Virus record (IMG/VR): IMGVR_UViG_3300009158_000046
Coordinates: 8,978-72,977 of that record
DNA length: 64,000 nucleotides
Strand: one strand, 5' to 3'
Source of the DNA: a virus
Shown: positions 3,902 to 64,000 of the stretch, one piece after another
Layout: each line of letters opens with the position of its first letter
Position numbering within the stretch: position 1 is the stretch's first letter
Notes under the pieces: model-generated
The model's database searches: none
Told to the model about the DNA's origin: nothing
What the model saw: only the letters and a program-made list of their open reading frames with translations
Translations under genes and position numbers: made by a program

Positions 3902-3916
3902 TGAAAGGTTTCAACC
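3902..3916. promoter_or_regulatory. Palindromic operator-like site (imperfect copy)
   Basis: TGAAAGGTTTCAACC containing the rIIA stop codon. Confidence 0.6.
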
Positions 3917-6028
3917 GTGCTCAGCGGCACGAGCTTCAAGATCGAGATAGTAATCAAGATCCTGGACGTTCGAGTTATAGTACCCCAACTCCTGAACGAA
4001 GCGATGCAGGAGCTTGTACTTCTCCCTGAGGAGTTCGTACTCACCACCCAACTCCTGTGCGGGGCTGGGCGTCTCCACCAACTGACGAGCGTCGGCAGTG
4101 AATTTGTAGTAGTAGTTGTAGAGATTGCGCTCGTCAGACTTGTCTTCGCCAGACTTGTGGAGCATCACCTTGGTGAGAAAGGCTGCGAAGTCGATAGGCT
4201 TCCTGCGAACCAACAGGTTAGCCTTCATCTTGAGGTTCTCGACACTACGGTCGAGAGCGTCGGCCTGCCGCTTACCCCTTGCGACAGCATCGAAGTCCAT
4301 CTTGCTTTCGACGATCTGCTTGAGCCAGGGGCCAAACATCGTCCACTTTTGGAACTTCGGGGTCTCATCGAAAATGATGACGTTCGGGACTTCGTCGACG
4401 TACCCTGTCAGCTTGAGCAGCCGCAGGATCTCGCCGACGTGGCCCCGCATCATGTTGGTGTTGTAGGTGTGGTTAGGATCGGTGAGGTAGTTCCGGTTCC
4501 GCATCTGGGTGCGGCTGCCGACCTCCCGGTCGACGACGTAGATGCCGCCTTCCTTGAGAGAGATGGAGACGTCATTGATCTCGCCGTTGGCGAAGATCGA
4601 CTTCTTCTTGACGGTCAGGCGAGAACGACCCTCACGGGCGATCTTGGGCAGCTTGACCTTGCCGAGATCGAACACCGCCGGGTCGGTGCGGGTCAGTCCA
4701 AAGCGACCGAGGACCGCGTCGACGTGGTCGTTGTCCTTGCCGATGCAGCGCAGCCAAAGCACCCGGCCGGTCAGACGGGGCTTGAGGGCCGTGATACGTT
4801 CGAACGAGCGACTGGTTGTGGTCTGAATGATGACGCTGCGAATGCCAGCGCCATAGGAGCCGATGCTCCAGCTCCAATTTGCCTTGCCACGACCCTCTGA
4901 GAAGCGGTCGAAGACGGGGCTGTCCTGATCGCTGTTGAAGACGCAGGCGCTGACCTCGTCATGGTTGGACTTGAAGGTGCTGACGATCGGCGTCTTGCCC
5001 CTGTAGAGCACCTTGCTCTCCAGGTGCTTCGCAGCGCCACTCGGCATCGTGTTGGTTCGGTCGTGGAAGAGGACGCAGGCCTCGAAGAAGTTCTCGGCCG
5101 TGTCGATGTGGTCCTGCAGCTCGACGACGTAGGCCAGCTCGAAGGCCTTGATCGTCTCCATCAGCGTCTGCTTGGTGGTGGCGTCGTAGCCAAGCTCCTC
5201 GTTCGACGTGGTGGGCGTGAGGCTGCCCAGAGGCACGTCGAACAGGATCGGCACGCGCCGCCATGGCCAGTCGGGCATGTCGAGAGCCGCCATGTCGACC
5301 GGGAACAGGATGCAGCCCATCCGAACCCTGGGACCGCTGAACGGCACAGTGTCCTTCTGGTACTGGACCCAGCCGTCGCCGGAAGCGGCGATGACCTCGC
5401 TACCGAAGTCGATCTCCGGATAAATCTTCGGCCGGGGGCGAAAGCCCCAATAGGCAGACTGGGCTTCCCACCGGACCTTGTCGATGTCCTCGCGCCGGAT
5501 CGGGAACGACACCTCCAAGCCGGTCGGCTCGTCGGTCGGGCTCTCGTCGATCAGGTCCCAGCCGGGCTTGCCGTCTGGCTGGATCGCCATGGTGTAGGTC
5601 CGCACCATGCCGTCGAAGAACGAGCGCACGGTGAAGGAGCCAGCGCCCTGGCCGAGCTGGGTGCCGTTGATCAGGTAGCCGTAGGGGCTCTTGGAGCCGA
5701 GGCCACGGTGACCCTGGCTGTCGGCGTCGTTGTCCTTGGTCGAGTTGCCGAACTCGCAGAAGACGTTGACGACGTCGTCGTGGCTGAGGCCGGGGCCGCA
5801 GTCACGGATCCGGAACACCGGCTTGAAGATGGTGGGCAGGAAGACCTCGAAGCTGGTCTTGGTGTCCCAGGCGTTGGACCCCAGCTCCTGAAGGAAGTAT
5901 TTGATCTTGTTCTTCGCAATGCCGGACATGAGAGTGTAGTACATGACCGGAGTTGCACGAATGCCAGCCGTGCCGTGGCTGATCGTCTCAGACGTGATCT
6001 TGGTGTAGGTTCCGTAATTCGGTATCAT
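3911..6028 (-). CDS. rIIA: RIIA-like protein with N-terminal GHKL ATPase
   Basis: ELGSNAWD, IRDCGPGLS and GLGSKSP GHKL motifs; adjacent to rIIB; GGAG RBS before MIPNYG. Confidence 0.88.
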   Translation of the reverse strand: MIPNYGTYTKITSETISHGTAGIRATPVMYYTLMSGIAKNKIKYFLQELGSNAWDTKTSFEVFLPTIFKPVFRIRDCGPGLSHDDVVNVFCEFGNSTKDNDADSQGHRGLGSKSPYGYLINGTQLGQGAGSFTVRSFFDGMVRTYTMAIQPDGKPGWDLIDESPTDEPTGLEVSFPIRREDIDKVRWEAQSAYWGFRPRPKIYPEIDFGSEVIAASGDGWVQYQKDTVPFSGPRVRMGCILFPVDMAALDMPDWPWRRVPILFDVPLGSLTPTTSNEELGYDATTKQTLMETIKAFELAYVVELQDHIDTAENFFEACVLFHDRTNTMPSGAAKHLESKVLYRGKTPIVSTFKSNHDEVSACVFNSDQDSPVFDRFSEGRGKANWSWSIGSYGAGIRSVIIQTTTSRSFERITALKPRLTGRVLWLRCIGKDNDHVDAVLGRFGLTRTDPAVFDLGKVKLPKIAREGRSRLTVKKKSIFANGEINDVSISLKEGGIYVVDREVGSRTQMRNRNYLTDPNHTYNTNMMRGHVGEILRLLKLTGYVDEVPNVIIFDETPKFQKWTMFGPWLKQIVESKMDFDAVARGKRQADALDRSVENLKMKANLLVRRKPIDFAAFLTKVMLHKSGEDKSDERNLYNYYYKFTADARQLVETPSPAQELGGEYELLREKYKLLHRFVQELGYYNSNVQDLDYYLDLEARAAEHG

Positions 6029-6045
6029 TTGTTGCTCCAAAAATG

Positions 6046-6073
6046 AAAAGGCCCGCCAATGGCGAGCCTTTTT
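6046..6073 (-). terminator. Intrinsic terminator
   Basis: AAAAGGCCCGCC-AAT-GGCGAGCCTTTTT. Confidence 0.7.
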
Positions 6074-6096
6074 CGATAAAGACGAGGATGGTTAGT

Positions 6097-6114
6097 GGTT
6101 GAAAGCTTTCAACC
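6097..6114. promoter_or_regulatory. Palindromic operator-like site
   Basis: Perfect 18 bp palindrome GGTTGAAAGCTTTCAACC abutting the stop codon at 6114. Confidence 0.75.
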
Positions 6115-6458
6115 TACTCGGAGTTGCTGATCGCGTTCGAAGCCTCCTGGAAGATCACGAAGTGCTTGGAGCGGACGTAGTGGACGAACCGCGTTTCCCA
6201 GTCCTTGGAGGCAGTCCTACGCAACTCTCCACGCTTGGCCTGCACGAGCTGCAGTGCGAGCTTCTTCATCCGCATCGCCATGCGGGCCTTGCGGAGCCAG
6301 ACAGCGTCGTCCTGACGTTCGGGGTCGATGAGGTGGCCCTCGATGACGCCGAGTGCCTGCGTGAGCACGAGCTGGGCGTTGTGGCAGTCGTCGAGAGTCT
6401 TGAGATCGTCGATGACCCAATCGGGGCCGTCGATCTCGATGACAGGTACGGGCTTCAT
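6114..6458 (-). CDS. hypothetical protein
   Basis: 114 aa, ATGA-coupled, AAGGAG RBS. Confidence 0.7.
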   Translation of the reverse strand: MKPVPVIEIDGPDWVIDDLKTLDDCHNAQLVLTQALGVIEGHLIDPERQDDAVWLRKARMAMRMKKLALQLVQAKRGELRRTASKDWETRFVHYVRSKHFVIFQEASNAISNSE

Positions 6459-6955
6459 TTCAGGATCTCCTTCAGTTCCTTGAGGGTTCGGGGCCGGTAG
6501 CCGATGGCATCGACGCCGACATCGAGCGAGTTGCCCTCCCCGGTCATCGCGCCGTGGACGTGACCGAAGAGGTGGATGGAGCCATGCCGGTCACGGTTCC
6601 AGCTCCGGAGGGGGTAGTGGCAGAGAACGACCGGCAGTCCGGTGTCCGGGTCGGTCAGCTCTGCCATTGGGAAGTTGGGCTGGATTATCGCGCGGGTGTC
6701 GTAGTGATCGTGGTTGCCCTGGATGAGGATGATCGTCCCGTTCAGGGTTGAGACGAGATCCCGGATCTGGGACTTCTTCTTGTGAAAGGCGAAGTCGCCC
6801 AGGTGGTAGACGACGTCCCTTGGCTTCACGACCGAGTTCCACGTCTCAATCATGTGCCGGTCCATCTCATCGACAGAGGAGAAGGGCCGCTTGCAGTATT
6901 TGATGATGTTGACGTGGCCGAAGTGGGTGTCAGAGATGAAGAAGGTCTCGCTCAT
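6455..6955 (-). CDS. calcineurin-like metallophosphoesterase
   Basis: SDTHFGH, HLGD, GNHD and GHVH motifs. Confidence 0.92.
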   Translation of the reverse strand: MSETFFISDTHFGHVNIIKYCKRPFSSVDEMDRHMIETWNSVVKPRDVVYHLGDFAFHKKKSQIRDLVSTLNGTIILIQGNHDHYDTRAIIQPNFPMAELTDPDTGLPVVLCHYPLRSWNRDRHGSIHLFGHVHGAMTGEGNSLDVGVDAIGYRPRTLKELKEILK

Positions 6956-7497
6956 TCTGTCGCCAGTCCTCTGTCGGGAGAAAGCCAGTTCGGGTTCTTG
7001 GTGATGCGATAGGCAACTTCGCGAGTGGCACGCTCGGTCTTGAAGTCGCCGATGGCGAGAGCGAGACCGTCACTGCCTCGGCCGTAGAGGGTCCAGAACG
7101 CGGTAGGTCGGCTGTCTCCAACCCCCACGTAGCCGAAATACAAGTCCTCGATTGCCTGGGTTGCGAGTTCGTAGGTCTGGTATGACCTGATCTCACCCTC
7201 CCAGAGCACGCACGGCCTCATCTCGTAGCTGACAAAGACGGGCGGTGTTGGCTGGGGAGGTTCTGGCCGGTCGAGAACCACGCCAAAAGCTTCCAGCGCC
7301 AGCTTGCGCTTTTCGATCTCGGCCGTCAGGTGATCGAAGGTGAGTTTGCGTAGGTCAGCGGAGAAGTCCTTGGACGGATAGGCGTTGAGAGCCACGGATA
7401 TGGTAGTAGAGAGCGCCTGTCCGTCTAACCGGAGATCCTCCAGGCTTTGGATCTCGTCGTTGAGCCGGGTTACGATATTGATGTTCTTGATATTCAA
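6952..7497 (-). CDS. hypothetical protein
   Basis: 181 aa, coupled to both neighbours. Confidence 0.65.
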   Translation of the reverse strand: MNIKNINIVTRLNDEIQSLEDLRLDGQALSTTISVALNAYPSKDFSADLRKLTFDHLTAEIEKRKLALEAFGVVLDRPEPPQPTPPVFVSYEMRPCVLWEGEIRSYQTYELATQAIEDLYFGYVGVGDSRPTAFWTLYGRGSDGLALAIGDFKTERATREVAYRITKNPNWLSPDRGLATE

Positions 7498-7709
7498 GAG
7501 ACTACCCTCGCTTCTGTTGCCTCGATCCAGACTTTTGCCCCGCAGTCCAGGGGTTTGTCTGGACGGTGGATGACGCGGACGGGGCCGGTGAGTTCGACCT
7601 CGTGTGCGTAGATACGTTTCCGCCCCTGCCGGATGGTCAGGGGCGGATCATTTCGGCCGTGCTTGCGGTTGGCAGCCACGACGCTGCGGTTGACGTGGAC
7701 TCTAATCAT
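7494..7709 (-). CDS. small basic conserved-looking phage protein
   Basis: IHVNR...RPDKPLDCGAKVWIE; ATGA-coupled. Confidence 0.7.
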   Translation of the reverse strand: MIRVHVNRSVVAANRKHGRNDPPLTIRQGRKRIYAHEVELTGPVRVIHRPDKPLDCGAKVWIEATEARVVS

Positions 7710-7909
7710 CCAGGCACCACCACAACCGGAACTTCGGGGTAGTCGGTCGACTTGATGACGACGGCGATGCTGGCTGTGTGGGGATCGTGCCTGTCCAGCA
7801 GCTCGTCATAGTGAGCCTGAGCGTCTGACAGGCTTTCGTGGGCGTGGTAGTGGTCGTTCAACTTGCTATCCACCCACACGACCAGGAACATGGGCTGCAT
7901 CATCAGCAC
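7706..7909 (-). CDS. hypothetical protein
   Basis: 67 aa, in operon. Confidence 0.6.
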   Translation of the reverse strand: MLMMQPMFLVVWVDSKLNDHYHAHESLSDAQAHYDELLDRHDPHTASIAVVIKSTDYPEVPVVVVPG

Positions 7910-8376
7910 TCACCTGAGTTGTCGGCATCAGTCCCAGCGAGGACTTCTTCCCACTCGGGACGCCCGTTGGTCAGGTAATTGCGGAGAGCCTGGGCAGCCT
8001 GCTCGGCCGAGATGTTCTCGTACTCCCAGCGATAGGTTCGGCCAGACTCTTGGCCTGGATAGAACAACTCCTTCAGATCTTCGGTTGGGGCGTTGGAAAC
8101 GAATTTGTCGGCATCGTCCCTGTCGAAAATCCAAATGCCGTCGATTTTCTTGCCGTTCATGAGGGCGTAGGCCCATCCGCCGATACAGCCGACAGTTCCG
8201 CAATGATCAGACTGGGGCTGGGCCACGACAGACATGTTGAAAAGGCTTGGACTGATGAAGTCTGGATCGTTTGTATCGGGGACGTGACGGAGCTTCCCGC
8301 TCTCAAGTCCCTTGAGGACACGGATGAGGGAGGCGTGCAGTTCGGTGTCGATGTTGAGCTGTTCGGCGGTCATCAT
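7903..8376 (-). CDS. hypothetical protein
   Basis: 157 aa, FNM...HCGTVGCIGGWA motif. Confidence 0.7.
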   Translation of the reverse strand: MMTAEQLNIDTELHASLIRVLKGLESGKLRHVPDTNDPDFISPSLFNMSVVAQPQSDHCGTVGCIGGWAYALMNGKKIDGIWIFDRDDADKFVSNAPTEDLKELFYPGQESGRTYRWEYENISAEQAAQALRNYLTNGRPEWEEVLAGTDADNSGEC

Positions 8377-8576
8377 TTGCTGAGGTTCCCTTTGTTGACG
8401 GAGAGGACGGTGAGAAGCTGGCCGTAGACGAGGTCGGTCTTGGGCTGCTCACGGAAGTCTTCGACGGTGTGCTCGGTGAGCCAGTCACCGGTCACATCGA
8501 CGATGGTCTGGACCTGTTCGGTCGCCCATCGGGCGGCTTCCGCGTCGGTCTGGATGGAGAGAAGGGGGTGGGTCAC
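8373..8576 (-). CDS. hypothetical protein
   Basis: 67 aa, GTGA-coupled. Confidence 0.6.
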   Translation of the reverse strand: MTHPLLSIQTDAEAARWATEQVQTIVDVTGDWLTEHTVEDFREQPKTDLVYGQLLTVLSVNKGNLSK

Positions 8577-8851
8577 AACTCCCTCCCGTAGTGGCAGAGC
8601 AAGATCTCGCCCCTGTAGTCTTCGATTGCCGGATCGAGGCGACCCGTCACGGTGATCAGGTCGAAGTCGAGGATGTCCCCGTCCGGTTGGGGAAAGCCGA
8701 TGTCGACACCGTGGCGCAGGTAGAAGTCGCGCCGCTCGTTCAGGTCGACCGAGTGAATGTCGGCGTAATCGGCCCCCTCATGTGAAACGACCCGGCCAGT
8801 GACCGGGTCGATTTCGAGGCTTCCGTAGGTTCCGAATGCGTGGATTGTCAT
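8573..8851 (-). CDS. hypothetical protein
   Basis: 92 aa, GGAGG RBS. Confidence 0.65.
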   Translation of the reverse strand: MTIHAFGTYGSLEIDPVTGRVVSHEGADYADIHSVDLNERRDFYLRHGVDIGFPQPDGDILDFDLITVTGRLDPAIEDYRGEILLCHYGREL

Positions 8852-9093
8852 TTGATGTCCTCCTGCACGAGATCGACCAAGTTGGCTGTAAAAGGGCCAT
8901 GAATAGTCATGGCTGGGGACAGGCTGAGGTCGGGAAGATCCTCGCTGTCGAATGACAAGTCAGAGATGATGTCTCCTTTCAGCTCCAGACATGTCGAATT
9001 CAACTCACAAACGAGGCTGTAGGCCTCGTCCTTGCTGTTGGCCTTGACGTAGGCGGTGGCGGCGATCTTGATGTCGATTGCGTAGAGGTTCAC
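8848..9093 (-). CDS. acidic hypothetical protein
   Basis: 81 aa, coupled. Confidence 0.6.
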   Translation of the reverse strand: MNLYAIDIKIAATAYVKANSKDEAYSLVCELNSTCLELKGDIISDLSFDSEDLPDLSLSPAMTIHGPFTANLVDLVQEDIK

Positions 9094-9284
9094 TGGAGCA
9101 ACTCCCCCTCTGGAGTTCCGCTGTGTCGGTTGAGCGTGATCTTGACCTCGACTAGGTAGTTCCAGTCGGGACCAGCCTCGATGAGGTCATGGACCTCCTC
9201 GATCTCCTCGACCTGCTCCATTGCCGTGACGCCGACGCCATTGACGACGTAGGTCCTCAGCACGTTCCAGCGCTTCTCACCCAT
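9090..9284 (-). CDS. hypothetical protein
   Basis: 64 aa, coupled. Confidence 0.6.
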   Translation of the reverse strand: MGEKRWNVLRTYVVNGVGVTAMEQVEEIEEVHDLIEAGPDWNYLVEVKITLNRHSGTPEGELLQ

Positions 9285-9492
9285 CCCTGGACCTCATGAC
9301 GGCCACGACGTTGCGGAGCGGGACGTAGACGGGTCGATCGGTCTTCGGCAGGAGGACGACGATGTCCACCTGGGGGACGCGGGGCATGGGTTCCCACAAG
9401 CAGTTCACGAGCCAGATGCCGGTGCTCAAGAGCACGTCGATGTTGGGGCTGTTGATGTCGACAGTGACTGCCTTGAATTCAGCGAGGGTCAT
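9277..9492 (-). CDS. hypothetical protein
   Basis: 71 aa, AAAGGA RBS. Confidence 0.6.
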   Translation of the reverse strand: MTLAEFKAVTVDINSPNIDVLLSTGIWLVNCLWEPMPRVPQVDIVVLLPKTDRPVYVPLRNVVAVMRSRDG

Positions 9493-9634
9493 TGTTCGAT
9501 CGTCCTTTCAAAAGATCGTGGATCAACTTGGCCTCTCGCTTTGAGATGCGACGGCCAGATCGGTTTGATGCGGCGATAGCCTTGTTGACGGCCACCGGGG
9601 AGTAGCGGACAGGCGGGGGGCGATAGGGCTTCAT
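9479..9634 (-). CDS. 51 aa basic microprotein
   Basis: Manual translation MKPYRPPPVRYSPVAVNKAIAASNRSGRRISKREAKLIHDLLKGRSNNDPR; ATGA overlap with the stop at 9631. Confidence 0.6.
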   Translation of the reverse strand: MKPYRPPPVRYSPVAVNKAIAASNRSGRRISKREAKLIHDLLKGRSNNDPR

Positions 9635-9972
9635 GCTCCCATCCTCCGCTCGGCTTCGACCATGCGGTGGTACTCGGCCTCGTCACGCTGGATGTCGTCC
9701 CAACGGGCGAGGAGGTCGGGGGGAGTGCGGTCGCGGTCCACGACCATGACCTTGCCGGTGCCGCCGCAAGGGTCGCACTCGCGGTCGTAGCGTCCGGCGA
9801 AGTAGTCCTCCTCGAACTCTGGTCCGGCCTCGTCCATCTCGTCGGCCGTGTAGGCACCGAGGTGGAGTGAGTTCTTGCCGTGGCCGTTGCAGGTCGAGCA
9901 GATCTCGAACTTGTAGGGGAGACGGATGGGCTCTTCGCCCTCGCCGTCGTCGATGATGGGGGGATTAGCCAT
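9631..9972 (-). CDS. DnaJ-type CxxCxGxG zinc-ribbon protein
   Basis: CSTCNGHG and CDPCGGTG; start MANPPII. Confidence 0.75.
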   Translation of the reverse strand: MANPPIIDDGEGEEPIRLPYKFEICSTCNGHGKNSLHLGAYTADEMDEAGPEFEEDYFAGRYDRECDPCGGTGKVMVVDRDRTPPDLLARWDDIQRDEAEYHRMVEAERRMGA

Positions 9973-10186
9973 GATCGGGCAGCTCCGGGATGAGGTTGCG
10001 GGTGACGTCAAGCCAGACGCGGTCCTTGCACAGGACGCTCTGGAACACGGGACCATCGAAGGTCCCCTCCCCGATCGTGCATTTGCGCTTGGTCGGGTAG
10101 CGCTCGAAGAAGGCCTTGGCGGCTTGTCGCGGGGTCTTTCCCCGGACGAAGGGCACGCCAGAACGGGTGGCGATGAATTCCTTCAC
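9965..10186 (-). CDS. hypothetical protein
   Basis: GTG start after AGGAG, GTGA-coupled. Confidence 0.55.
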   Translation of the reverse strand: MKEFIATRSGVPFVRGKTPRQAAKAFFERYPTKRKCTIGEGTFDGPVFQSVLCKDRVWLDVTRNLIPELPDHG

Positions 10187-10602
10187 GACAGTCTCTCCTG
10201 CATGGCCTCGATGACCCTGCGCTGCAGGGCGACGATGTCGGCCAGGGTCTGGGGTTCTTCGATGTCGGCGAGTTCGAGCTGCCGGGCCAACGAGACCGGC
10301 AGACGGCACTTTTGTTGAAAGCTTTCAACAGGTTGGCGAGGTGGGGGCGGAGCCGGAGCCGGGATTTCGACCGGCAGTCCAGGGGTCTGGAGACCGGGGA
10401 GACCGAACTCCGCCCGCAGCGTGTCGACGGCTGACTGGAGCTGGTCGACGATCTCCTGGGCCTGCTCGGGCGTGTACTCGTAGGAGTACCGGTTGGTGAG
10501 GTGGCCTAGAATGCGAAACGCCTCCAAAGTGGTTTGGAGGCGTTTCGAGGATAGGCGCTGAAAGTTCTGGGCTTTAGGGCTGTCGTTCAATGGGCACCCC
10601 AT
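10183..10602 (-). CDS. conserved-looking hypothetical phage protein
   Basis: KAQNFQRLSSKRL...LGHLTNRYSYEYTPEQ helical N-terminus and Pro-rich linker; exact start uncertain. Confidence 0.65.
   Translation of the reverse strand: MGCPLNDSPKAQNFQRLSSKRLQTTLEAFRILGHLTNRYSYEYTPEQAQEIVDQLQSAVDTLRAEFGLPGLQTPGLPVEIPAPAPPPPRQPVESFQQKCRLPVSLARQLELADIEEPQTLADIVALQRRVIEAMQERLS
10313..10330. promoter_or_regulatory. Palindromic operator-like site, intragenic
   Basis: Perfect 18 bp palindrome TGTTGAAAGCTTTCAACA. Confidence 0.7.
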
Positions 10603-10759
10603 AAGCGATAGGGACAAGCCGATAGTCGTGGTAGCGCAGGTTCTTGACGATCTCGGCCCACACCTTGTGGGCGAGTTCACGGTTGCTCTCGATCACGCCG
10701 GAGAAATGCCAGGGTGACGACGGAGAAGCCTTGAGTTCGACCCTGTAGTTGTAGGTCAT
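10574..10759 (-). CDS. hypothetical protein
   Basis: MTYNYRVELK..., ATGA-coupled. Confidence 0.6.
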   Translation of the reverse strand: MTYNYRVELKASPSSPWHFSGVIESNRELAHKVWAEIVKNLRYHDYRLVPIAYGVPIERQP

Positions 10760-11229
10760 GCTGCCAGCTCCGTGGTGAGTTCGAATGTCCGTATGCAGAA
10801 AGCAGCCTCGGACATCCAGCGTGGCTTCTGGGCTTCGACAAACTCGGCGACCGAGGAGTTGGGCTCGACACTCCAAGTGTCCACGAGTGCCCGGACCTCG
10901 TCGAAGGTGAGGTGGAACAAGCGCAGATGGGACCTCAAATTCTCGACGTGCAAGGACTGGAACTGGGGGTAGAACCCGGCCCAATACTTGGCGTTCTCGA
11001 CAGCGTGCATCGGTACGCCATCGAAGCTGGAGAGGTGGATCTGGGCCAGCGGTTCAAGGTCAGGCCACTGGGCCACCAGTAGGTGGTGGAGGGTTCCGGC
11101 CTGTTCGAGGCGTCCATCCTTGAACAGCCGTCCAACCAAGGAGAAGTAGGGAGGCTTGCCCGTGATCTTGGCGTCAGCCACGAGCTTGAGGGTGCCGTCC
11201 GGGGACTGGCAGGATCGGATCACAGACAC
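10756..11229 (-). CDS. hypothetical protein
   Basis: 157 aa, IHLSSFDGVPMHAVENAKYW motif. Confidence 0.7.
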   Translation of the reverse strand: MSVIRSCQSPDGTLKLVADAKITGKPPYFSLVGRLFKDGRLEQAGTLHHLLVAQWPDLEPLAQIHLSSFDGVPMHAVENAKYWAGFYPQFQSLHVENLRSHLRLFHLTFDEVRALVDTWSVEPNSSVAEFVEAQKPRWMSEAAFCIRTFELTTELAA

Positions 11230-11504
11230 TGTAATGCTCGCGATTTGAGGGTTTCGGGGTCCCTGATGCCGTCGAGAAACCAGAGACGGAGGAAAATGGG
11301 GACCACGTCGTAGTCCCAGACGTGGTCGGAGAAGGCGGGCGAGAGCGGATCGACGACCATGGAGAACTTGGTCACGAGGTCGCGGGTCTCTGGCGGGCCG
11401 TGCTGCTCAATCAGCGGGCCGTAGCTCGCGTACTCGATCTCGTGCATGTGCAGCCACGCCGCCTGGGCGGTGTTGCAGATGTCCAGCCAGCGCTGTTCAG
11501 CCAT
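11220..11504 (-). CDS. hypothetical protein
   Basis: 94 aa, GGAGG RBS. Confidence 0.65.
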   Translation of the reverse strand: MAEQRWLDICNTAQAAWLHMHEIEYASYGPLIEQHGPPETRDLVTKFSMVVDPLSPAFSDHVWDYDVVPIFLRLWFLDGIRDPETLKSRALQCL

Positions 11505-11844
11505 AGACCACCTCCCCGAACACCCAACCCTGGAAGAACACGTCGGCGTCCTCGGCGTCGTAGTAGTCCATGGTGAAGTCGGGGCGCTGGGCGAGGAGGA
11601 GGTTCAGGCCACGCTGGATGTGCTCGAAGGGCACGCTGGTGGGTTCGTCATCGTCGGGGGTGACGACCAGGATCGTGCTCGCAGGGAGCGTGTAGGTCTC
11701 CGGGTTGGAGTAATCGACGGAGGCCTGATACTTGATCCGGATCTTTTGGCACCAGTAGGACGATCCGCCCTCGACTGCCGTTGTCATGAGTTCGGCAATG
11801 TCCTGGGGGCTGAAGGTCCGGGGGGTGGGGACAATCCAAGTCAT
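11497..11844 (-). CDS. hypothetical protein
   Basis: AVEGGSSYW and YDAEDADVFFQ...FGEVVYG motifs; AAAGGA RBS. Confidence 0.7.
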   Translation of the reverse strand: MTWIVPTPRTFSPQDIAELMTTAVEGGSSYWCQKIRIKYQASVDYSNPETYTLPASTILVVTPDDDEPTSVPFEHIQRGLNLLLAQRPDFTMDYYDAEDADVFFQGWVFGEVVYG

Positions 11845-11858
11845 TGGGAGATCCTTTC

Positions 11859-12260
11859 TCAAGAGACGCGGAACCGGCCGGAGGCCGCGAGGCGGATGCT
11901 CTGGATTTCCGAGTTGTGGCGCGAGTAGTTGGCCTGCAAGACACGCACGTCATTGCGGAGATCCGTGACCTCCTTGGTGAGGTTGAGCAGGAGCTGCTGG
12001 ATCTCGGAGGGGAGCGGAGCCGGAGGCTGTGCCGGTTTCAGGTTCCCGAACTCGGCCTTTCGCAGATAGGCGACGGTGTTGCTCGACACCGGCACGTTCA
12101 TGAAGTCAGCCACGAACTTGGCGACGTTCTCGTCGTCCCAGCCGGGGTTGAACTCGATGAACTCTGTGTCGGGAACCTTGGACGTGACCTCGGTCAGCTT
12201 GTTGTAGATCGAGAGCCGGGTCTTGAAGTCAGCGTTGGTACGCTTGGAAGTCTGTGCCAT
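11859..12260 (-). CDS. hypothetical protein with C-terminal coiled coil
   Basis: Start MAQTSK directly after a palindrome that provides GAAAGGG. Confidence 0.7.
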   Translation of the reverse strand: MAQTSKRTNADFKTRLSIYNKLTEVTSKVPDTEFIEFNPGWDDENVAKFVADFMNVPVSSNTVAYLRKAEFGNLKPAQPPAPLPSEIQQLLLNLTKEVTDLRNDVRVLQANYSRHNSEIQSIRLAASGRFRVS

Positions 12261-12277
12261 GGTTGAAACCCTTTCAG
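12261..12277. promoter_or_regulatory. Palindromic operator-like site over RBS (imperfect copy)
   Basis: Minus strand reads CTGAAAGGGTTTCAACC-ATG. Confidence 0.7.
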
Positions 12278-12459
12278 TCGTCACCAAAGTGATTGGTCGC
12301 GAAATCTTCGACGATCCGGATAGCCTCATCGTGTTCGGAAAAGGCTTCTGGCTCTTCGTCTCGATCAGCCATCGCTGAACGAGCGAGATTGACGACGATT
12401 TGCAGTGCATCAGCCAGATCGAGCCGCACACCGTCGTCTTTGTTTTCATTAACGTTCAT
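12274..12459 (-). CDS. acidic hypothetical protein
   Basis: 61 aa, flanked by two palindrome copies. Confidence 0.65.
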   Translation of the reverse strand: MNVNENKDDGVRLDLADALQIVVNLARSAMADRDEEPEAFSEHDEAIRIVEDFATNHFGDD

Positions 12460-12477
12460 GGTTGAAACCCTTTCAAC
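12460..12477. promoter_or_regulatory. Palindromic operator-like site over RBS
   Basis: Minus strand reads GTTGAAAGGGTTTCAACC-ATG. Confidence 0.75.
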
Positions 12478-12479
12478 GG

Positions 12480-13052
12480 TTAGTAGTCCTGGAATGCTTT
12501 CAGAAGCTGGGTGATGATCTTGTCACCCAGACCAGCGCGGAGCTTGAGAGCTGTCGCCATACATGCGTGGTACATGGCGAGTGCTTTGCGGGAGTCCGGG
12601 TCGTACCCGAAGTCGGATGCCCAGTCCTCGAAGGACGAGTGGTTGATGACACTGGCGTCGAGGAGGATGCAGTAGATGACGTCGAGGTCGTTCGGCTTGA
12701 TTGGCCGGGATCGGTCCAGGGGGTAGAGGTGCCAGTCCTCGGGATTGGCGGCACCGGAGAGCCACTGCGGTTTCGAGGGAAACCCGGTCTCACACTCCGC
12801 CTTGATCCGGCCACGGAGGATGCGACGGTCCCAGGGTGTCTTCTGGGGCAAGGGCTTGAGCAGTCTGGAAACCGGGCACTGCCCGGATCTTGCGCTGTAG
12901 TCCACGTCCACGATGGGGTGCTTGTCCCTGTGCAGGGTCACGCGCCAGTTGAGGCAGGGGTCCTTGTCCGCGTTGCGAGACTTGGAGTGCGGGACGAAAG
13001 CCGAGCTGAGCCACAGGCCCAGCTCGACCTGCAAAACGGCTGGGTCTGCCAT
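12480..13052 (-). CDS. hypothetical protein
   Basis: Start MADPAV; SFEDWASDFGYDPDSRKA motif. Confidence 0.7.
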   Translation of the reverse strand: MADPAVLQVELGLWLSSAFVPHSKSRNADKDPCLNWRVTLHRDKHPIVDVDYSARSGQCPVSRLLKPLPQKTPWDRRILRGRIKAECETGFPSKPQWLSGAANPEDWHLYPLDRSRPIKPNDLDVIYCILLDASVINHSSFEDWASDFGYDPDSRKALAMYHACMATALKLRAGLGDKIITQLLKAFQDY

Positions 13053-13423
13053 CAGACCAACTCGACGATCCGCTTGGTCTCGACGCGGGCGATCAGGACC
13101 ACCCTTGAGACACGGACGAGTTCGACGTGCTTCTCTGAGGCCTTCTGCTCGGCGGTTTCGAGTGCGTCCGGGTATTCGTCGTCGTCGAAGTGGACGTGGT
13201 GCGAACTCCGGATGCCACCGAATGTCTCGTCCCATGTCACCATCCAGCCGTGCTTGGTGTCGGAGGTGTTTCGCTTCACCAAAGCGGCAAAGTTCGATGC
13301 CAGTTGGTCGTACAAATCCTTCGCTTCCTTGAGCGGAAGGTCCGTATGAGCGCGGATCGCCTTGATCGTCTCGATAGGTCCGTTCTTCGACGCACGGATC
13401 AGTTCGTTGATTAAGCCAAGCAT
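13052..13423 (-). CDS. protein with ribosomal L7/L12 C-terminal-like motif
   Basis: IETIKAIRAHTDLPLKEAKDLYD resembles the bL12 CTD consensus (IK.VR..TGLGLKEAKDLVE). Confidence 0.65.
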   Translation of the reverse strand: MLGLINELIRASKNGPIETIKAIRAHTDLPLKEAKDLYDQLASNFAALVKRNTSDTKHGWMVTWDETFGGIRSSHHVHFDDDEYPDALETAEQKASEKHVELVRVSRVVLIARVETKRIVELV

Positions 13424-13437
13424 GGAAGTTCTCCAGG

Positions 13438-13818
13438 TTAGTAGGTGACGTAGTGGGGGTGACCGTTCTCGAAGGCTTCGAGAGCGAGATCGCGGGACTC
13501 GTAGGGTGTCTCGGCAGCCTCCTCAGGGGTGATGAGACACCACGACTGGGGGCCTTCAGCGCCGGACTCGAAGTCGTTGCTCCACTTGATCACTGCCATG
13601 ACGTTGGCTTTGACCGTGGTTGCCCTGCTGAAGGATGCGCAGTCGCAGTCCATGCCCCAGTAGGAGATGCCGACGACACCGTCGTCACTGAGGGCGGCGA
13701 TCCTGCGGGAAAGCGACAGACGCTCGTTGAGCCAGTCCGGGTTGCGGCCGATCCATGTGAGCAACTGACGCCGCAAGGCGGGCTTGGTTTTGTAGATCTC
13801 ACGAAAGGTCGTGGTCAT
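13438..13818 (-). CDS. hypothetical protein
   Basis: 126 aa, MDCDC and RDLALEAFENGHPH motifs. Confidence 0.7.
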   Translation of the reverse strand: MTTTFREIYKTKPALRRQLLTWIGRNPDWLNERLSLSRRIAALSDDGVVGISYWGMDCDCASFSRATTVKANVMAVIKWSNDFESGAEGPQSWCLITPEEAAETPYESRDLALEAFENGHPHYVTY

Positions 13819-14012
13819 GGCATCACCTTGTAGATGCTGTTGCGGGTCTCGAAGACGTTGCGGACGAAGTCAGCCTTCAGCAGACGGCTGGTGACGAGCC
13901 GTTCTGCCGATGGAGCCATTGGATGGGGGTCGATCGGCGTGACCACGAGGTGCGGGGCGGGGTGGAGCCGGATCTCATGAAGGCGGGCTCGATAGAGTGG
14001 TTTACTTGGCAT
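13815..14012 (-). CDS. hypothetical protein
   Basis: MPSKPLYR...FETRNSIY; ATG follows a palindrome copy. Confidence 0.65.
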   Translation of the reverse strand: MPSKPLYRARLHEIRLHPAPHLVVTPIDPHPMAPSAERLVTSRLLKADFVRNVFETRNSIYKVMP

Positions 14013-14027
14013 GTTGAAAGCTTTCAA
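14013..14027. promoter_or_regulatory. Palindromic operator-like site abutting ATG
   Basis: Minus strand reads TTGAAAGCTTTCAAC-ATG. Confidence 0.75.
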
Positions 14028-14066
14028 AGGTTAGAATTGCGGATTTTAGTCCTAGCTTTTGGCCAG

Positions 14067-14100
14067 AAAAGTGCCCGCAGGATCGGGCGAACCTGCGGGC
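14067..14100 (-). terminator. Intrinsic terminator
   Basis: Minus strand GCCCGCAGG-loop-CCTGCGGGC-ACTTTT. Confidence 0.65.
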
Positions 14101-14169
14101 TAGTGGGGGAGGAACGCCCTGAATGGACGACCTGAGAGGATCATATCGCGGGTGCTTGGTGTGCGCTGA

Positions 14170-14676
14170 CTAACTCCTTAGGAGATATTGAGGGAGGTAC
14201 TCCTCGATGATGGAGTGCTTGAGGCCCGTCATGCGGGCGATCTCGTCGATCGACTGCCCTGCGTAGGCACCGATGTCCCGGAATTCCCGGAAGTAGTCCT
14301 CGGCGGGGTCGTAGGAGCCGTCCACGAGGTCCTCCAGCCGGTAGGAGGGGCCAGGGGAGAGCGAGATCACCTGCGAGGGCCTGCCGGTCTCTGTGTGGGC
14401 GTGCAGGGGGTTCACACAGGCCGCGCAGAGGCAGGTTCTCCTGACCAGGGGGGTGTGGTCGTAGAGGTGGTGGTGGAAGGCGTACAGGAGCCTCCTGACG
14501 GCCACTCTGCGGCCGAGGAAACTGACCATGGGGGTTGGCGAGGGGTCAGAACTGCCGACACCCGTCCAGATCCAGTGGATGTGGTTCTCGGGCTCGTCGG
14601 GGAAGCCGAGAGGCTCCTCGATGAACTCGGACATTTTGCGGATGCGGCCACGGAGGAGGTCACGGAGCGATTTCAT
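14170..14676 (-). CDS. HNH-endonuclease-like protein (degenerate) with possible C-terminal HTH
   Basis: WIWTG...RRLLY...TCLCAACVNPLH; AGGAGG RBS. Confidence 0.65.
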   Translation of the reverse strand: MKSLRDLLRGRIRKMSEFIEEPLGFPDEPENHIHWIWTGVGSSDPSPTPMVSFLGRRVAVRRLLYAFHHHLYDHTPLVRRTCLCAACVNPLHAHTETGRPSQVISLSPGPSYRLEDLVDGSYDPAEDYFREFRDIGAYAGQSIDEIARMTGLKHSIIEEYLPQYLLRS

Positions 14677-14747
14677 GGGGCCTCCTGGTAGGGTGGTAGC
14701 TTGAGGTGCCGTGAGGGGCGTCTGCGGGGCTGCTAGGTGCCATGAAG

Positions 14748-14798
14748 GTGGCCGTAGCCGTGGGCGTGGGCGTGGGCCTTGTGGCCGTGGCCGTGGGC
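14748..14798 (+). repeat. Tandem GTGGSC hexamer repeats (8 units)
   Basis: GTGGCC GTAGCC GTGGGC GTGGGC GTGGGC CTT GTGGCC GTGGCC GTGGGC. Confidence 0.8.
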
Positions 14799-14884
14799 GG
14801 GGGGCTGAGCGTTTTCACACAGTGTGCGTAAATTCGCGCAGTGTGGAGTCAAACTCCCATAGAGATCTCACGGATTTTTCGCGC

Positions 14885-15052
14885 TCAAATTACTGATAGA
14901 AAACGGTTAGGAAATAAAAATGGATTTGGGCTTATGATAATACAGCTTTATATCTAGGAGTATTACTTATATATCCTATATATTATTATTTTTCTTTAGT
15001 GGGTGATATAAAAAAATTTACTCCCCCTAAAAACTATCAGGAAACAAAATAG
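14885..15052. other. Very AT-rich non-coding island (candidate origin unwinding element or terminus)
   Basis: For example TATTACTTATATATCCTATATATTATTATTTTTCTTT in a GC-rich genome; no ORF. Confidence 0.55.
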
Positions 15053-15442: not shown

Positions 15443-15494
15443 TGCTACCTCCTCGCCCACGCACTAGACTGCGCTCGTGGGCGAGGAGGTAGCA
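15443..15494. repeat. Perfect 19 bp inverted repeat with 14 nt loop
   Basis: TGCTACCTCCTCGCCCACG ... CGTGGGCGAGGAGGTAGCA. Confidence 0.85.
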
Positions 15495-15536
15495 ACGAAC
15501 TACGTTGTGGGCGTATATCCGAAGCTATACTTCGAT

Positions 15537-15612
15537 GTTGAAAGGTTTCAACGCTTCCCTATTGGTTGAAAACTTTCAACCAAGACGAGGCCGGTTGAAA
15601 GTTTTCAACCGG
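15537..15612. promoter_or_regulatory. Three phased copies of the GTTGAAA-N2-TTTCAAC palindrome
   Basis: Cores at 15537-15552, 15565-15580 and 15594-15609 (28-29 bp period). Confidence 0.85.
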
Positions 15613-15624
15613 CCCACGCCCGTG

Positions 15625-16122: not shown

Positions 16123-16140
16123 GGTTGAAAGGCTTTCAAC
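16123..16140. promoter_or_regulatory. Palindromic operator-like site
   Basis: GGTTGAAAGGCTTTCAAC just upstream of the RBS of 15625..16107. Confidence 0.75.
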
Positions 16141-17576: not shown

Positions 17577-17594
17577 GGTTGAAAGCCTTTCAAC
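17577..17594. promoter_or_regulatory. Palindromic operator-like site over RBS
   Basis: Minus strand reads GTTGAAAGGCTTTCAACC-ATG. Confidence 0.78.
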
Positions 17595-20912: not shown

Positions 20913-21031
20913 GCTTGGATCTCAAGGATGTGGGGACTCAACCTGACTGATCCCCTACTCGGGCGCAATCAAAGCTCCCAAGGAGTCTGCTCTCCTTTAC
21001 TTGGTGATGACCTGACCCCACTTTCAACGCC

Positions 21032-40382: not shown

Positions 40383-40398
40383 GTTGAAAGCTTTCAAC
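40383..40398. promoter_or_regulatory. Palindromic operator-like site between stop and ATG
   Basis: TAG-GTTGAAAGCTTTCAAC-G-ATG. Confidence 0.75.
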
Positions 40399-61583: not shown

Positions 61584-64000
61584 TCAAGCGGCGAGCCGAA
61601 CTCTCTGAGAGTAAAGCCAGTCGACTGCATGATTGATTTCGTCATCAGTGGCGCGCTTGCCCTCACGGGCCTCACCAAAGATTTCTTTTGGAAGCTCGAA
61701 CAACTCGATCTGGCCGAGCGGAGATTTCTTTGAGTTCCAAGGTTCGAAGGTCAGTCCAACACTTGGAGAACTGTCCAGCTTGCACTTGGTGAACAGCGAC
61801 GGATGATCGGTCATCACGTCGTAGATGAGCCGAATAGCTGGAGCTGTGAGGTCGCGGTGGATCGAAAAGACCAGCTCGTCGTGGACGGGCATGAGGAAGC
61901 GCGCCTCACGCGGCGTCCAACCCATGTCCTTGAAGCGCTGGTTGATCCGCAGGATCGAGCGCTTGGCGATCGTCGCGCAGCTCCCCTGGATGTAGGCGTT
62001 GACGGTCTGATTGCCGCCACGACGCCGGATCTTGTTCGCCATCCAGCGAACCAGCGCGTAGAACTCCTTCATCAAGGGGTCTGGCGGGTTGTGGATGAAC
62101 TTCGAGCAAAACTCGTTGTGCCACGCCTCGGTCGCCTCGTACCGCGTGTAGCGGTGGCCGTCCGGCATCGTGATGAAGCCGTTGCGGGCAACCTCGGCGA
62201 TGAGGTCGAGCCGCCACTGCTCGGCAACCCAGAAGCGCTCCTTGTAGCGGTCGGTGGCTGCGCTGGCCTTGTCCGGCCCCCACCCCATCCGTTCCGCGAT
62301 GGTGCTCAGGAAGCCTGAATACCAGTAGTTGAAGTTCGCACCCTTACCCACCTCCGTGCGCCAATACTTGTAGGCACCAGCAGGTGTCAGAGGCTCCGAC
62401 TTGAGGTTGTGTTTGAGGCGATCAAGGTTCTCCAGGTCAGGGAACCCTGACCAGTCAACCGTCGTGCGAAGGGACTTGAACATCTCGGTGTTCAAGCCGG
62501 GCACCTCAACCGACAGGATGTCAGCCGCTGCTCCCGAGTGCAGGTCATCGTGAGGGAGCTGGCCAAAGGCCGAGATGAACTCCGGATCGCCGGAGAACTC
62601 GCCGATCTCGACCAGCTCGATCGCGGACCAGTCGAGAGAGACCATGACGTGGTCATCGTGATCTGCCTCGAAAAAGCCGCGCACGTAGGTGCTGTCGCCG
62701 CGCTTGGCGAGCTGCATTGAGTTCGGCTCGGAAGCCGCCATGCGGCGAGTTGCCAGCATCGAGGTGACGGTCGGGTAGAGCCGACCAGTCTCTGGATCCG
62801 TGAGGTCCAGGTAAGGCTGCAGGTACAGCTTCATCCGCTGGTCGATGCCCGACATGGCATTGAGGCAGTCGACGACCGTGGCAGCAGGCCCCGTCAGACC
62901 TTCGCGCAGCTTGCCGCGAGCCTCGCCATCGCTCTGCAACTTGCCGTGGGTGACGAGCAGCTTCGCGCCGATGAGGTCGTACAGCAGGACCCGGATCGGC
63001 ATGTAGTGGCTGAAGTTCGGGCCTAAGCCCTTCTCGAAGCCGAAGGACTTGGAGACGGAGCCGTTGACGCGGCTCAGCTCGACCTTCGCATCCGGATGGT
63101 CAGCCTGCTCAGCCCATGCGGCAATCGCCTTCCGGTACTTGGCGAAGTTGTTCGCGTACCACTTCTCGTGAGCAAGCAGCTTCAGGTTCGGCTCTGCCGA
63201 AAACGGCAGGAGCTGACGCACGGCGGCACGCATCGTCCGCAGGGTCTCGCCAGCCTTTTGCTGCTCGTTGGCCTTCTGATCGACGATGGCCGGGGTGTTG
63301 ACCCTCAGACCACCGAGGCGCAAGTCCGCATAGACATGCGTCATGGGGTTCTCGGTCTCGTTGAAAGCTTTCAACACCGGAACGCCGCCGTTCTGCAGCA
63401 TGAAGGAGATAAGGTAGCGAAACAGACTGACGGCCCAGTAGGCGTCGTCTGCGCCGTAGGCAGCGACGTCCTCACCGGTGAGCTTGCCCATGTGGATCTC
63501 GTCCCCAAGGGTCTCCTTGAAGGTGGCCATCTGGACGCCGAAAAAGGACTTGACCACGTCCTTGAGGCCGTAGCCGTAGGCCATCTCCTTGATGTAACCG
63601 TTGTAGGAGTGGGCAGCGTCCGAGGACTTCGAGAGGATCTTGAAGACGAACTCCTCCAGCTCCCGACCTAGCTTGCTGGTCTCAGGATCAAACTGGGTGG
63701 AGAGGCGCTCCAGGATGGGCAGCAAGGACTTGATGCCTCCGAGATCAGCCCGGCCAAAAACTCCCTTGTCGTACTGGTCGGGACCGAAGGCCGACACGCA
63801 CATCTGCATCGTGCAGAGGATGTGGGGCGGCAGGTCGTAGTCCAGGCAGGATTTGAGAACCGCGATTTCGAACGGCGCATTGTGCGCCACCCACATCGCG
63901 CCATCCTTGCGGGCGTCGAGCAGCCACCTCAGGTCGCTGGGCTTGAGGGCGTTCTGCCAGTCGGCGTGACCGAAGTTCAGGTAGACGCCTTTGTGAGGCA
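61584..64000 (-). CDS. Family A DNA polymerase (N-terminus outside the window)
   Basis: AHNAPFE (ExoII), YGADD (ExoIII), DWSAIEL (motif A), R...KGANF (motif B), PVHDEL (motif C); frame open to the window edge. Confidence 0.92.
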   Translation of the reverse strand, partial: PHKGVYLNFGHADWQNALKPSDLRWLLDARKDGAMWVAHNAPFEIAVLKSCLDYDLPPHILCTMQMCVSAFGPDQYDKGVFGRADLGGIKSLLPILERLSTQFDPETSKLGRELEEFVFKILSKSSDAAHSYNGYIKEMAYGYGLKDVVKSFFGVQMATFKETLGDEIHMGKLTGEDVAAYGADDAYWAVSLFRYLISFMLQNGGVPVLKAFNETENPMTHVYADLRLGGLRVNTPAIVDQKANEQQKAGETLRTMRAAVRQLLPFSAEPNLKLLAHEKWYANNFAKYRKAIAAWAEQADHPDAKVELSRVNGSVSKSFGFEKGLGPNFSHYMPIRVLLYDLIGAKLLVTHGKLQSDGEARGKLREGLTGPAATVVDCLNAMSGIDQRMKLYLQPYLDLTDPETGRLYPTVTSMLATRRMAASEPNSMQLAKRGDSTYVRGFFEADHDDHVMVSLDWSAIELVEIGEFSGDPEFISAFGQLPHDDLHSGAAADILSVEVPGLNTEMFKSLRTTVDWSGFPDLENLDRLKHNLKSEPLTPAGAYKYWRTEVGKGANFNYWYSGFLSTIAERMGWGPDKASAATDRYKERFWVAEQWRLDLIAEVARNGFITMPDGHRYTRYEATEAWHNEFCSKFIHNPPDPLMKEFYALVRWMANKIRRRGGNQTVNAYIQGSCATIAKRSILRINQRFKDMGWTPREARFLMPVHDELVFSIHRDLTAPAIRLIYDVMTDHPSLFTKCKLDSSPSVGLTFEPWNSKKSPLGQIELFELPKEIFGEAREGKRATDDEINHAVDWLYSQRVRLAA
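63360..63375. promoter_or_regulatory. Palindromic operator-like site inside the polymerase gene
   Basis: GTTGAAAGCTTTCAAC, encoding LKAFN. Confidence 0.65.

Follow-up and report, generated by a model that had tools for sequence, protein, structure and literature searches.

Dispersed repeats at gene starts occur in several groups of phages, and three of them, the start-associated sequences (SAS) of Cluster K mycobacteriophages, the repeat of Citrobacter phage Mordin and the repeats of coliphage T1 and Citrobacter phage Stevie, have no known function. The SAS (PMC3203893) and the 26-bp Mordin repeat (PMC4611695) are described as conserved words just upstream of some starts, which include the ribosome-binding site; the SAS are asymmetric and of a single orientation, and the ESAS found upstream of them are 17-bp imperfect inverted repeats with 4–13-bp spacers (PMC3203893). 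The 22-bp repeats of T1 and Stevie, of the lytic siphovirus type, are reported in sixteen to twenty mostly intergenic copies, asymmetric and oriented with transcription, and their description assigns them no role (PMC4319613). The stoperators of mycobacteriophage L5 and the Cluster A phages, read by gp71, are likewise many copies of a short word, mostly in short junctions; the phage repressor also acts at its own promoter, and the sequence differs among related phages (PMC9283540, PMC6550527). They are presented as 13-bp, asymmetric sites, set in one orientation and read by a two-domain monomer (PMC9283540). Here we analyse the palindrome GTTGAAA-N2-3-TTTCAAC, dispersed over a 64,000-nucleotide window (positions 8978–72977) of a freshwater phage genome, the 72,977 bp IMG/VR virus record IMGVR_UViG_3300009158_000046, which has a 123-bp terminal repeat; coordinates are window positions unless marked genome. 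Our proposal, to which we give about an even chance, is that a phage-encoded regulator, acting as a symmetric dimer, uses these palindromes as its operators on double-stranded DNA.

A palindrome whose positions are kept while its word changes

Ten perfect copies lie in the window (6098, 10314, 12461, 15537, 15565, 15594, 16124, 17578, 40383 and 63360), for 0.01 expected as the mean of 100 dinucleotide-preserving shuffles, none of which reached 10; the initial annotation was thus right that this is not chance. Allowing up to two mismatches adds three sites, at 3900 and 14013 (one mismatch each) and at 12262 (two mismatches), so that the 13 copies it announced are all recovered within 1–2 nt, with three imperfect sites instead of two. 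A 14th copy, perfect, lies outside the window at genome 6845, which brings the whole genome to 11 perfect and 3 imperfect copies. Spacers other than 2 or 3 gave no site family, and no second palindrome or k-mer is repeated to a comparable degree in the whole genome. The 7-nt arms are invariant while the centre varies (GC, GG/CC, AC/GT, CCC/GGG, GCC/GGC), with three nucleotides in 4 of the 14 sites. Full sites included, the window holds 17 GTTGAAA and 14 TTTCAAC half-sites, few of which lie outside full sites.

The genome carries a siphovirus gene set by Pfam and PHROGs (tape measure protein, lambda J-like 2943-aa tail protein, rIIA and rIIB), together with replication and repair genes: a family A polymerase, a primase-polymerase/helicase and an SbcCD-like nuclease. 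Its closest cultured phages by TerL are Caulobacter phage Seuss (43%) and Achromobacter phage JWF (41%), and its gene order is syntenic with that of Seuss: it is a Seuss-like siphovirus. According to our own gene caller, the early, replication and nucleotide genes form a minus-strand block, the structural and lysis genes a plus-strand block, and the two diverge between the primase side and terL. Of the 13 window sites, eleven stand within 3900–17578, that is in the early/control arm, as first noticed. Twelve of the 14 copies are non-coding. The remaining two are embedded in genes, those for the family A polymerase (PolA) and a 135-aa protein, which also agrees with the initial annotation, as do the contacts with stop codons: five sites touch or overlap the upstream stop (3900, 6098, 12262, 12461 and 40383). 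Three sites lie 16–69 nt upstream of a start, at 16124, at 3900 for rIIB and at 6098 for rIIA. The sites are the following, with a lone half-site that had been noted before terL and is indeed present:

3900..3915, imperfect site GATGAAA-GG-TTTCAAC, 1 mismatch; overlaps the rIIA stop, 25 nt upstream of the rIIB ATG
6098..6113, perfect N2; adjoins the stop of a 114-aa gene (0 nt), with the rIIA ATG 69 nt downstream
10314..10329, perfect N2; inside a minus-strand 135-aa open reading frame (ORF), encodes PVESFQQK
12262..12278, imperfect N3, 2 outer-arm mismatches; holds the TGA stop of a 61-aa gene, 1 nt before the ATG of a 133-aa gene, supplies GAAAGG
12461..12477, perfect N3; takes up an intergenic gap of 20 nt and ends 1 nt ahead of the 61-aa gene's ATG, supplies GAAAGG
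14013..14028, imperfect N2, 1 mismatch; 0 nt before the ATG of a 65-aa gene
15537..15609, three tandem perfect N2 (15537, 15565, 15594); 28–29 nt apart, 15–72 nt past the stop of a 160-aa gene
16124..16140, perfect N3; the 160-aa gene starts 16 nt downstream and has an AAGGG Shine-Dalgarno of its own
17578..17594, perfect N3; 1 nt before the ATG of a 318-aa gene, supplies GAAAGG
40383..40398, perfect N2; between tail genes homologous to lambda L and K, 0 nt past a TAG stop and 1 nt before an ATG
63360..63375, perfect N2; inside the family A DNA polymerase gene, encodes LKAFN
genome 6845, outside the window, perfect; 86 nt upstream of a 154-aa gene
21022..21028, plus strand, lone right half-site TTTCAAC (CTTTCAAC) without a left arm; 3 nt before the terL ATG

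This word itself was found in no close relative: cultured phages gave no match by megablast, and the motif is absent from five IMG/VR relatives. What is conserved is the class of element. Eleven relatives have their own over-represented palindrome with 6–7-nt arms (Bonferroni-corrected P from 2e-3 to 1e-25), with counts above the maxima of Markov simulations; the survey left out G005 and G007, and detected no palindrome family in G012. The words are:

Seuss, TTTACC-N2-3, 7 unique copies
G001, GAGTTC-N3, 3 copies
G002, GAGTTC-N3, 5 copies
G003, GTTCAA-N3, 3 copies
G004, TAATTAC-N2-3, 5 copies
G006, TTCCCG-N2, 3 copies
G008, GTCTCT-N3, 5 copies
G009, GGTACG-N3, 9 copies
G010, TGTACG-N3, 9 copies
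G011, GGTACG-N3, 5 copies
G013, a GC-rich word, 4 copies
G010, second family, CCATAT-N3-4-ATATGG, 7 copies (7104, 50682, 51568, 51729, 52267, 53347 and 59349; L196–L200), five of them within 2.7 kb

The positions are shared too. Upstream of rIIA, at 5–69 nt, this phage, Seuss, G009, G010 and G011 each have their lineage's own palindrome, with four different words; just downstream of the primase gene, copies are found in this phage, G002, G003, G006 and G008. The same class of element is thus traceable through about a dozen related genomes, the word changed and the positions kept. In G009 and G011 a TTGACC stands 6 nt upstream of the rIIA-proximal palindrome, a placement by which the palindrome overlaps the spacer and -10 region of a promoter-like element. 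The five copies of G002 all lie 51–405 nt away from starts.

The two in-gene copies deserve a comment. At 10314, the frame of the 135-aa ORF shows coding signal on either side of the site, which rules out an alternative start 4 nt past it. At 63360, three relatives have (I/L)xTFF where this polymerase has LKAFN, a conserved TFF having become AFN, and in an in-gene copy of G010 an AGG arginine codon completes the palindrome. These two changes suggest selection on the DNA word itself.

Around the other sites, a terminator-like hairpin (6072–6046) separates site 6098 from the rIIA ATG, and the 318-aa gene behind site 17578 is the first gene beyond the terminator that follows the primase gene. The tandem triplet heads a 948-bp gene-free gap, with the next start 860–917 nt away; the first transcribed copy of the three has its stem extended to 12 bp, then a T-poor tail. 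The same gap (14677–15624) holds an inverted repeat with a 17-bp stem (~15440–15497), a terminator-like hairpin (15078–15056) and an AT-rich island of ~100 nt (~14930–15020). As the equivalent Seuss region carries a 1748-bp terminal repeat, this gap may hold genome ends, an origin or early promoters. Directly after it comes a 168-aa HNH/endonuclease-like protein (14170–14676, minus; PHROG E 4e-9). Among the early genes, a 123-aa protein (13052–13423, minus) has a match to the L7/L12 ribosomal protein, C-terminal domain (E 1.2e-5 in Pfam, slightly over the cut-off, and weak in NCBIfam), which is odd for a phage; the starts of its neighbours bear the palindrome. In a 56-aa protein (752–922, minus), a C2H2-type zinc finger is matched below the cut-off (E 2e-6).

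The same motif was also met outside this group of phages. Its exact 16-mer is found in 17 IMG/VR contigs, one copy each, which looks like chance. The rIIA query gave nothing on metagenome contigs, and a 190-aa early protein used as a query recovered a single contig, unrelated. The tandem-motif pattern was retrieved on metagenome contigs at no fewer than 119 loci, and 12 among the matches listed have at least two full sites. We treat these loci as unrelated: none encodes any homologue of this phage's proteins. Their pairs or triplets, mostly with an AT centre and 24–90 nt apart, are seen in L108 (4017–4083), L138, L109, L081 and eight other loci, some GC-rich, and may be operators of another regulator with a similar half-site.

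A candidate reader beside the integrase

A tyrosine integrase is encoded at genome 6985–8046, Seuss being without one. Just downstream of it (genome 6861–6984) stands a fragment identical to the first 37 nt of tRNA-Pro(TGG), preceded by TTGCAA-N15-TATAAA; the 37-nt match is present in 38 genomes, nearly all of Beijerinckiaceae. This fragment is probably attP, and its association with the integrase suggests that the phage is temperate, inserts at tRNA-Pro and infects Beijerinckiaceae. Rfam recognised no RNA family in the window; ARAGORN, run on the window and on L001, predicted no tRNA in either.

The gene that directly follows the integrase and attP, a little outside the window (genome 6294–6758, minus), encodes a 154-aa two-HTH protein; this is where an immunity or control gene usually lies. 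Its Seuss homologue, gp077 (E 4e-11), bears the annotation of a Cro/C1-type regulator. The 154-aa protein is made of an N-terminal three-helix part followed by an XRE/Cro-like helix-turn-helix domain, with a near-invariant ME-G--DF(T/S)LSEL in the C-terminal part of the family. The family counts 57 representatives in 1.84 billion proteins, as full-length homologues, and in IMG/VR is found at 9 loci, each on a contig of 52–86 kb. Homologues were detected by profile in G003 and G006–G013 and by BLAST in Seuss and G002; none was found in G004, nor in G001, where tblastn alone was used. As a lone query the sequence retrieved no IMG/VR relative, and a word-indexed search gave its own cluster alone.

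Its AlphaFold2 model has a pLDDT of 93.4. In Foldseek the C-terminal domain comes nearest to C.AhdI, C.BclI, NHTF, BldD, SinR, lambda cI and P22 c2, with weak matches (E 4e-3 to 8e-2). Modelled as a homodimer, the protein scores 0.49, the best control scoring 0.06; this mark of 0.49 is reached by 20 of 30 solved one-chain pairs and by 1 of 23 single chains. The runs agree on 100% of the contacts, the partner has a pLDDT of at least 72, and the interface passes through the conserved DFSLS loop. The models thus support the pairing of the 154-aa protein as a homodimer.

The gene has besides the lineage's own palindrome upstream of it, at 86 nt in this phage, 254 nt in G008 and ~300 nt in G010. 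The G008 module repeats the whole arrangement: integrase, own palindrome, the same tRNA-like fragment, then the regulator gene. G006 is classed as a provirus; its record is opened between the two genes, with integrase and regulator at opposite ends, and insertion through an attP situated there would produce just such an order. On its position, conservation and modelled fold we regard the 154-aa protein as the leading candidate reader of the palindromes.

The initial annotation, which was confined to the window, had missed this protein and proposed five others. Three of them remain plausible, as discussed below: the 134-aa (54654), 62-aa (51905) and Arc-like 75-aa (31900) proteins are conserved. 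The Ala-rich 318-aa protein has no relative detected in 12 relative genomes (G005 and G007 not among them). The 121-aa “AbrB-like” protein has tblastn relatives in G006 and G008 alone, and no match to a DNA-binding family. As observations in their own right, the ORF of the Arc/ribbon-helix-helix-like protein (31900–32127, minus) lies antisense in a 296-bp gap of the structural block and is conserved in G009–G012, and the 318-aa protein (16620–17576, minus) contains DDADDADDADD and PAPVPAPVPAP repeats.

Possible operators on DNA, on RNA or on both

If the palindromes are operators on DNA, the regulon would extend over the early arm, with 11 of the 14 sites, and over the rII genes and the gene of the regulator itself; the polymerase gene and the tail operon would each contribute one site. 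Once bound, the dimer would obstruct RNA polymerase both at gene junctions and at early promoters or a short way past them, so that early genes would be shut down or silenced, in the lytic programme or in the lysogen. In short junctions, the purine-rich inner half-site (GAAAGG) would have been co-opted as ribosome-binding site, and the repeats would double as short homologies for the gain and loss of early genes. The invariant arms and the variable centre of the 14 copies suggest the half-site contacts of a symmetric dimer rather than a reader of RNA loops, and an effect on a start codon is impossible for five sites or more, three being distant tandem copies and two lying in coding sequence. 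Conserved arms with a free centre, sites far from starts, sites in coding sequence, weak RNA folding and an XRE-like candidate all favour DNA. The initial proposal of phage-wide control through a dimeric protein is the best supported one, the relatives having palindromes at the same positions; between DNA and RNA, which it placed side by side, we lean towards DNA.

Several observations weigh against this reading. The abutment on starts, detailed below, is far above chance, and in Seuss all five intergenic sites hug the starts (1–16 nt) despite intergenic gaps of 56–266 nt. The centre varies in length, 2 or 3 nt here, and varies also in Seuss, in G004 and in the second family of G010; a rigid dimer should not tolerate such a change, for which the lac operator O1, compared with its symmetric form, nevertheless offers a precedent. 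There is no consistent promoter: a -10-like hexamer at the right spacing occurs in 1 of 28 site orientations, and it is antisense. G012 has the candidate protein and no detected palindrome family, G004 a family and no detected homologue, and the three other conserved proteins mentioned above, all DNA-binding-like, could be the readers instead. In the ~93%-alike strain described below, the third tandem site falls in an indel-rich stretch. Finally, the gene calls on which the positions are read come from a simple caller of our own.

The alternative that survives best, although we hold it rather unlikely, is that the palindrome acts on RNA as a translational operator: a hairpin would hold the Shine-Dalgarno of early cistrons and a phage protein binding it would lower their translation, in the manner of T4 RegA or of a coat-protein operator. 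The position of the sites is its strength. Five of the 14 copies (12262, 12461, 14013, 17578 and 40383) end 0–1 nt before an ATG, as had been claimed; this makes 5 of the 12 non-coding sites, whereas 2000 placements in non-coding DNA gave 0.15 on average and never more than 2, and since this null is restricted to non-coding DNA, intergenic location cannot account for the abutment. Three of these five, all N3 sites, read GAAAGG on the coding strand, another point on which the initial annotation was accurate. Their AAGG (AAAGG in the site) ends 9 nt from the ATG, which is the modal AAGG spacing in the genome, and GAAAGG is complementary to the CCUUUC tail of the 16S rRNA in Methylocapsa, a member of the candidate host family; spacing and complementarity together indicate that the start-abutting N3 copies supply the ribosome-binding site. 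In Seuss, the five intergenic copies near annotated starts carry GAGG or GGAGG, 1–6 nt from four starts, and as they do so in roomy gaps, compaction alone fails to explain the overlap. A centre of 2 or 3 nt would be harmless in a hairpin loop, and different palindromes at one place upstream of rIIA resemble the covariation of a stem. The Shine-Dalgarno overlap, also seen in Seuss with ample intergenic space, and the 2/3-nt centre in several lineages thus favour RNA.

On the other hand, invariant arms with a free loop are the reverse of what is known of the recognition of hairpins by proteins. The tandem and the two in-gene copies have no start to control, and the G002 sites are all five remote from starts. 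As a free RNA the hairpin is weak: it is missing from the minimum-energy fold of all four minus-strand start-abutting contexts, and the folding z-scores of the five start-abutting contexts range from -1.55 to 0.73. Transcripts from the promoter predicted in G009 and G011 would begin inside the site or past it. A RegA-family protein is absent, PF01818 having no match at E <= 1 in the genome, which also disposes of RegA operators proper. Operators on DNA and operators on RNA are in any case compatible, not exclusive.

We also consider a wider, tentative and on the whole unlikely synthesis: across Seuss-like phages, one 16–17-nt word would be at once the DNA operator of a fast-evolving two-domain repressor, a Shine-Dalgarno-bearing mRNA hairpin heading early cistrons, so as to set transcription as well as translation, and a portable joint for early genes, each lineage having re-invented the word with its reader while keeping the sites at rIIA, in the primase-proximal region and at the regulator's own gene. 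A further possibility concerns this last site. As the phage carries the tRNA's 5' half, its integration would bring the host tRNA promoter immediately in front of the palindrome and of the gene for the 154-aa regulator. This gene, beyond attP, might come under that promoter only once the phage is integrated, which would make an integration-dependent switch.

That the role of the repeats is primarily recombinational, as portable junctions for the exchange of early-gene cassettes with regulation coming second, like the PeSLs of T4-type phages, seems to us improbable. Strain variants nevertheless give it some substance. Contigs of four other DNA runs, which show presence only, were aligned to 3000–18500, X3 being ~99% and X6 ~93% alike; what follows concerns the best-supported 40 of 737 differences. 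Sites 12262 and 12461 form, with the adjoining CATG, a 19-nt direct repeat flanking the 61-aa gene, and in X6 this gene is missing, the contig resuming with the right arm so that one copy is left. The 65-aa gene that follows site 14013 is lacking from X3 and X6, where the site, with the ATG and two codons, is fused to the next gene. Three of the eight listed joints have an end at a site or within 9 nt of one; a further low-depth X6 contig, beyond these eight, joins the last base of site 6098 to 12 nt past site 17578. Moreover, nearly all the early genes between sites have no relatives in the first five relative genomes compared. But five of the eight joints are elsewhere, and recombination at repeats is the expected by-product of any dispersed repeat. 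The recombinational reading leaves unexplained the palindromy, the copy inside the polymerase gene, the tandem triplet and the rIIA position with its changed word. The 16–17-bp site is shorter than the known core sites of tyrosine recombinases, and the integrase is an ordinary one, scoring 31.6 bits against TIGR02249 (integron integrases) for a cut-off of 265. We take the gain and loss of genes at the sites as a consequence of the repeats, not their purpose. Other replacements of early genes in X3 and X6 are not bounded by palindromes (6954–7077, 122 nt replaced by 137 nt; 7239–7714, 474 nt by 262 nt), and X3 has a 21-nt insertion at 17097 with dense substitutions in the 318-aa gene.

Very improbable, lastly, is a promoter element or a host box of the CRP/FNR/FixK type, in spite of an arm whose TTGAAA matches the -35 TTGACA at 5 of 6 positions, of a TTGAAA-N16-CATCCT upstream of rIIA, and of N2 sites that fit TTGA-N6-TCAA, the form of the FixK/FNR box: the single acceptable -10 is the antisense one already mentioned and a promoter scan finds 3 sites with a promoter for 3.9 expected, the sites abutting an ATG would start transcripts inside the gene, the extra central base of 4 of the 14 sites breaks the fixed half spacing of a CRP/FNR/FixK box, the words that relatives have in these positions are unrelated, the proteins scanned included neither a sigma factor nor a member of the CRP family, and the exact motif (degenerate boxes were not searched) has 0 copies in five Beijerinckiaceae genomes (22.6 Mb) taken as candidate hosts, so that the match to a host regulator box, which the initial annotation had named as a refutation, was not found.

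Returning to operators for a dimeric regulator, the data show the enrichment of the palindrome, its positions, the conservation of class and positions in relatives, the modelled fold of the candidate and gene indels at sites; we infer that a protein binds the sites, that the 154-aa product would be this protein, and that its effect would be repression. The single conserved candidate reader, and Seuss growing on Caulobacter, a common laboratory host, make operator, translational operator or both directly testable. If the pairs of reader and word were confirmed, they would make up a collection of orthogonal repressor-operator pairs and illustrate how a phage can rewire a regulon whose targets stay in place.

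Comparison with known systems

The initial annotation called this control system unrecognised. The term is fair for this phage group: we found no description of this element class in the literature on start-associated sequences and on Caulobacter phage Seuss, and the Seuss genome paper makes no mention of palindromes. The kind of element is, however, already known, stoperators, SAS/ESAS, PeSLs and the T1/Stevie repeats being all dispersed phage repeats. Within this kind, the element does not have the asymmetry of stoperators, SAS, Mordin and T1/Stevie repeats, nor the promoter-terminator make-up of PeSLs.

The stoperators are the system it resembles by its many copies of a short word, mainly in short junctions, by the site near the candidate regulator's own gene and by a sequence that differs among relatives. 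The sites are here 16–17-bp palindromes, unlike stoperators, the candidate reader is modelled as a symmetric dimer, and there is no sequence relation between the two systems. To the SAS and the Mordin repeat it is comparable in a part of its copies, those that adjoin starts and include the ribosome-binding site, namely 5 of 14 here and 4 of the 7 unique copies in Seuss; unlike in the SAS/ESAS pair, one compact palindrome carries the ribosome-binding site, and 9 of the 14 copies are away from starts. The T1 and Stevie repeats are likewise mostly intergenic repeats of a siphovirus; the difference is that the sites of this phage are palindromic.

PeSLs are described as repeated intergenic elements in the hyperplastic early regions of T4-type phages, with indels and replacements there (PMC2839356), a gene flux that matches the strain joints at the sites of this phage. 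They combine a strong sigma-70-like promoter with a terminator stem-loop, whereas the sites here have no consistent promoter, and a terminator-like stem is seen in one copy alone (15594).

T4 RegA, which represses many early mRNAs at their initiation regions, those of rIIA and rIIB included, would work alike if the palindrome were read on RNA; RegA sites are unstructured and of loose consensus. Two further systems were considered and rejected. Integron attC sites have the core words GTTRRRY and RYYYAAC, with an imperfect palindrome of ~57–141 bp between them; the two words are here 2–3 nt apart, and the integrase is generic. Hairpin promoters of the N4 type do not apply either, the giant 2943-aa protein being the lambda J-like tail protein and not a virion RNA polymerase.

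There remain the XRE-type dimers (C-proteins, SinR, lambda cI, P22 c2), regulators that bind short palindromes. The candidate shares the fold of its C-terminal domain with them and models as a symmetric dimer; the centres of the 7-nt arms are 9–10 bp apart, that is, inverted half-sites separated by about one helical turn, as in XRE-type operators. In them the operators are confined to one locus and number one to a few; here 14 copies are spread genome-wide, and the candidate has an extra N-terminal helical domain.

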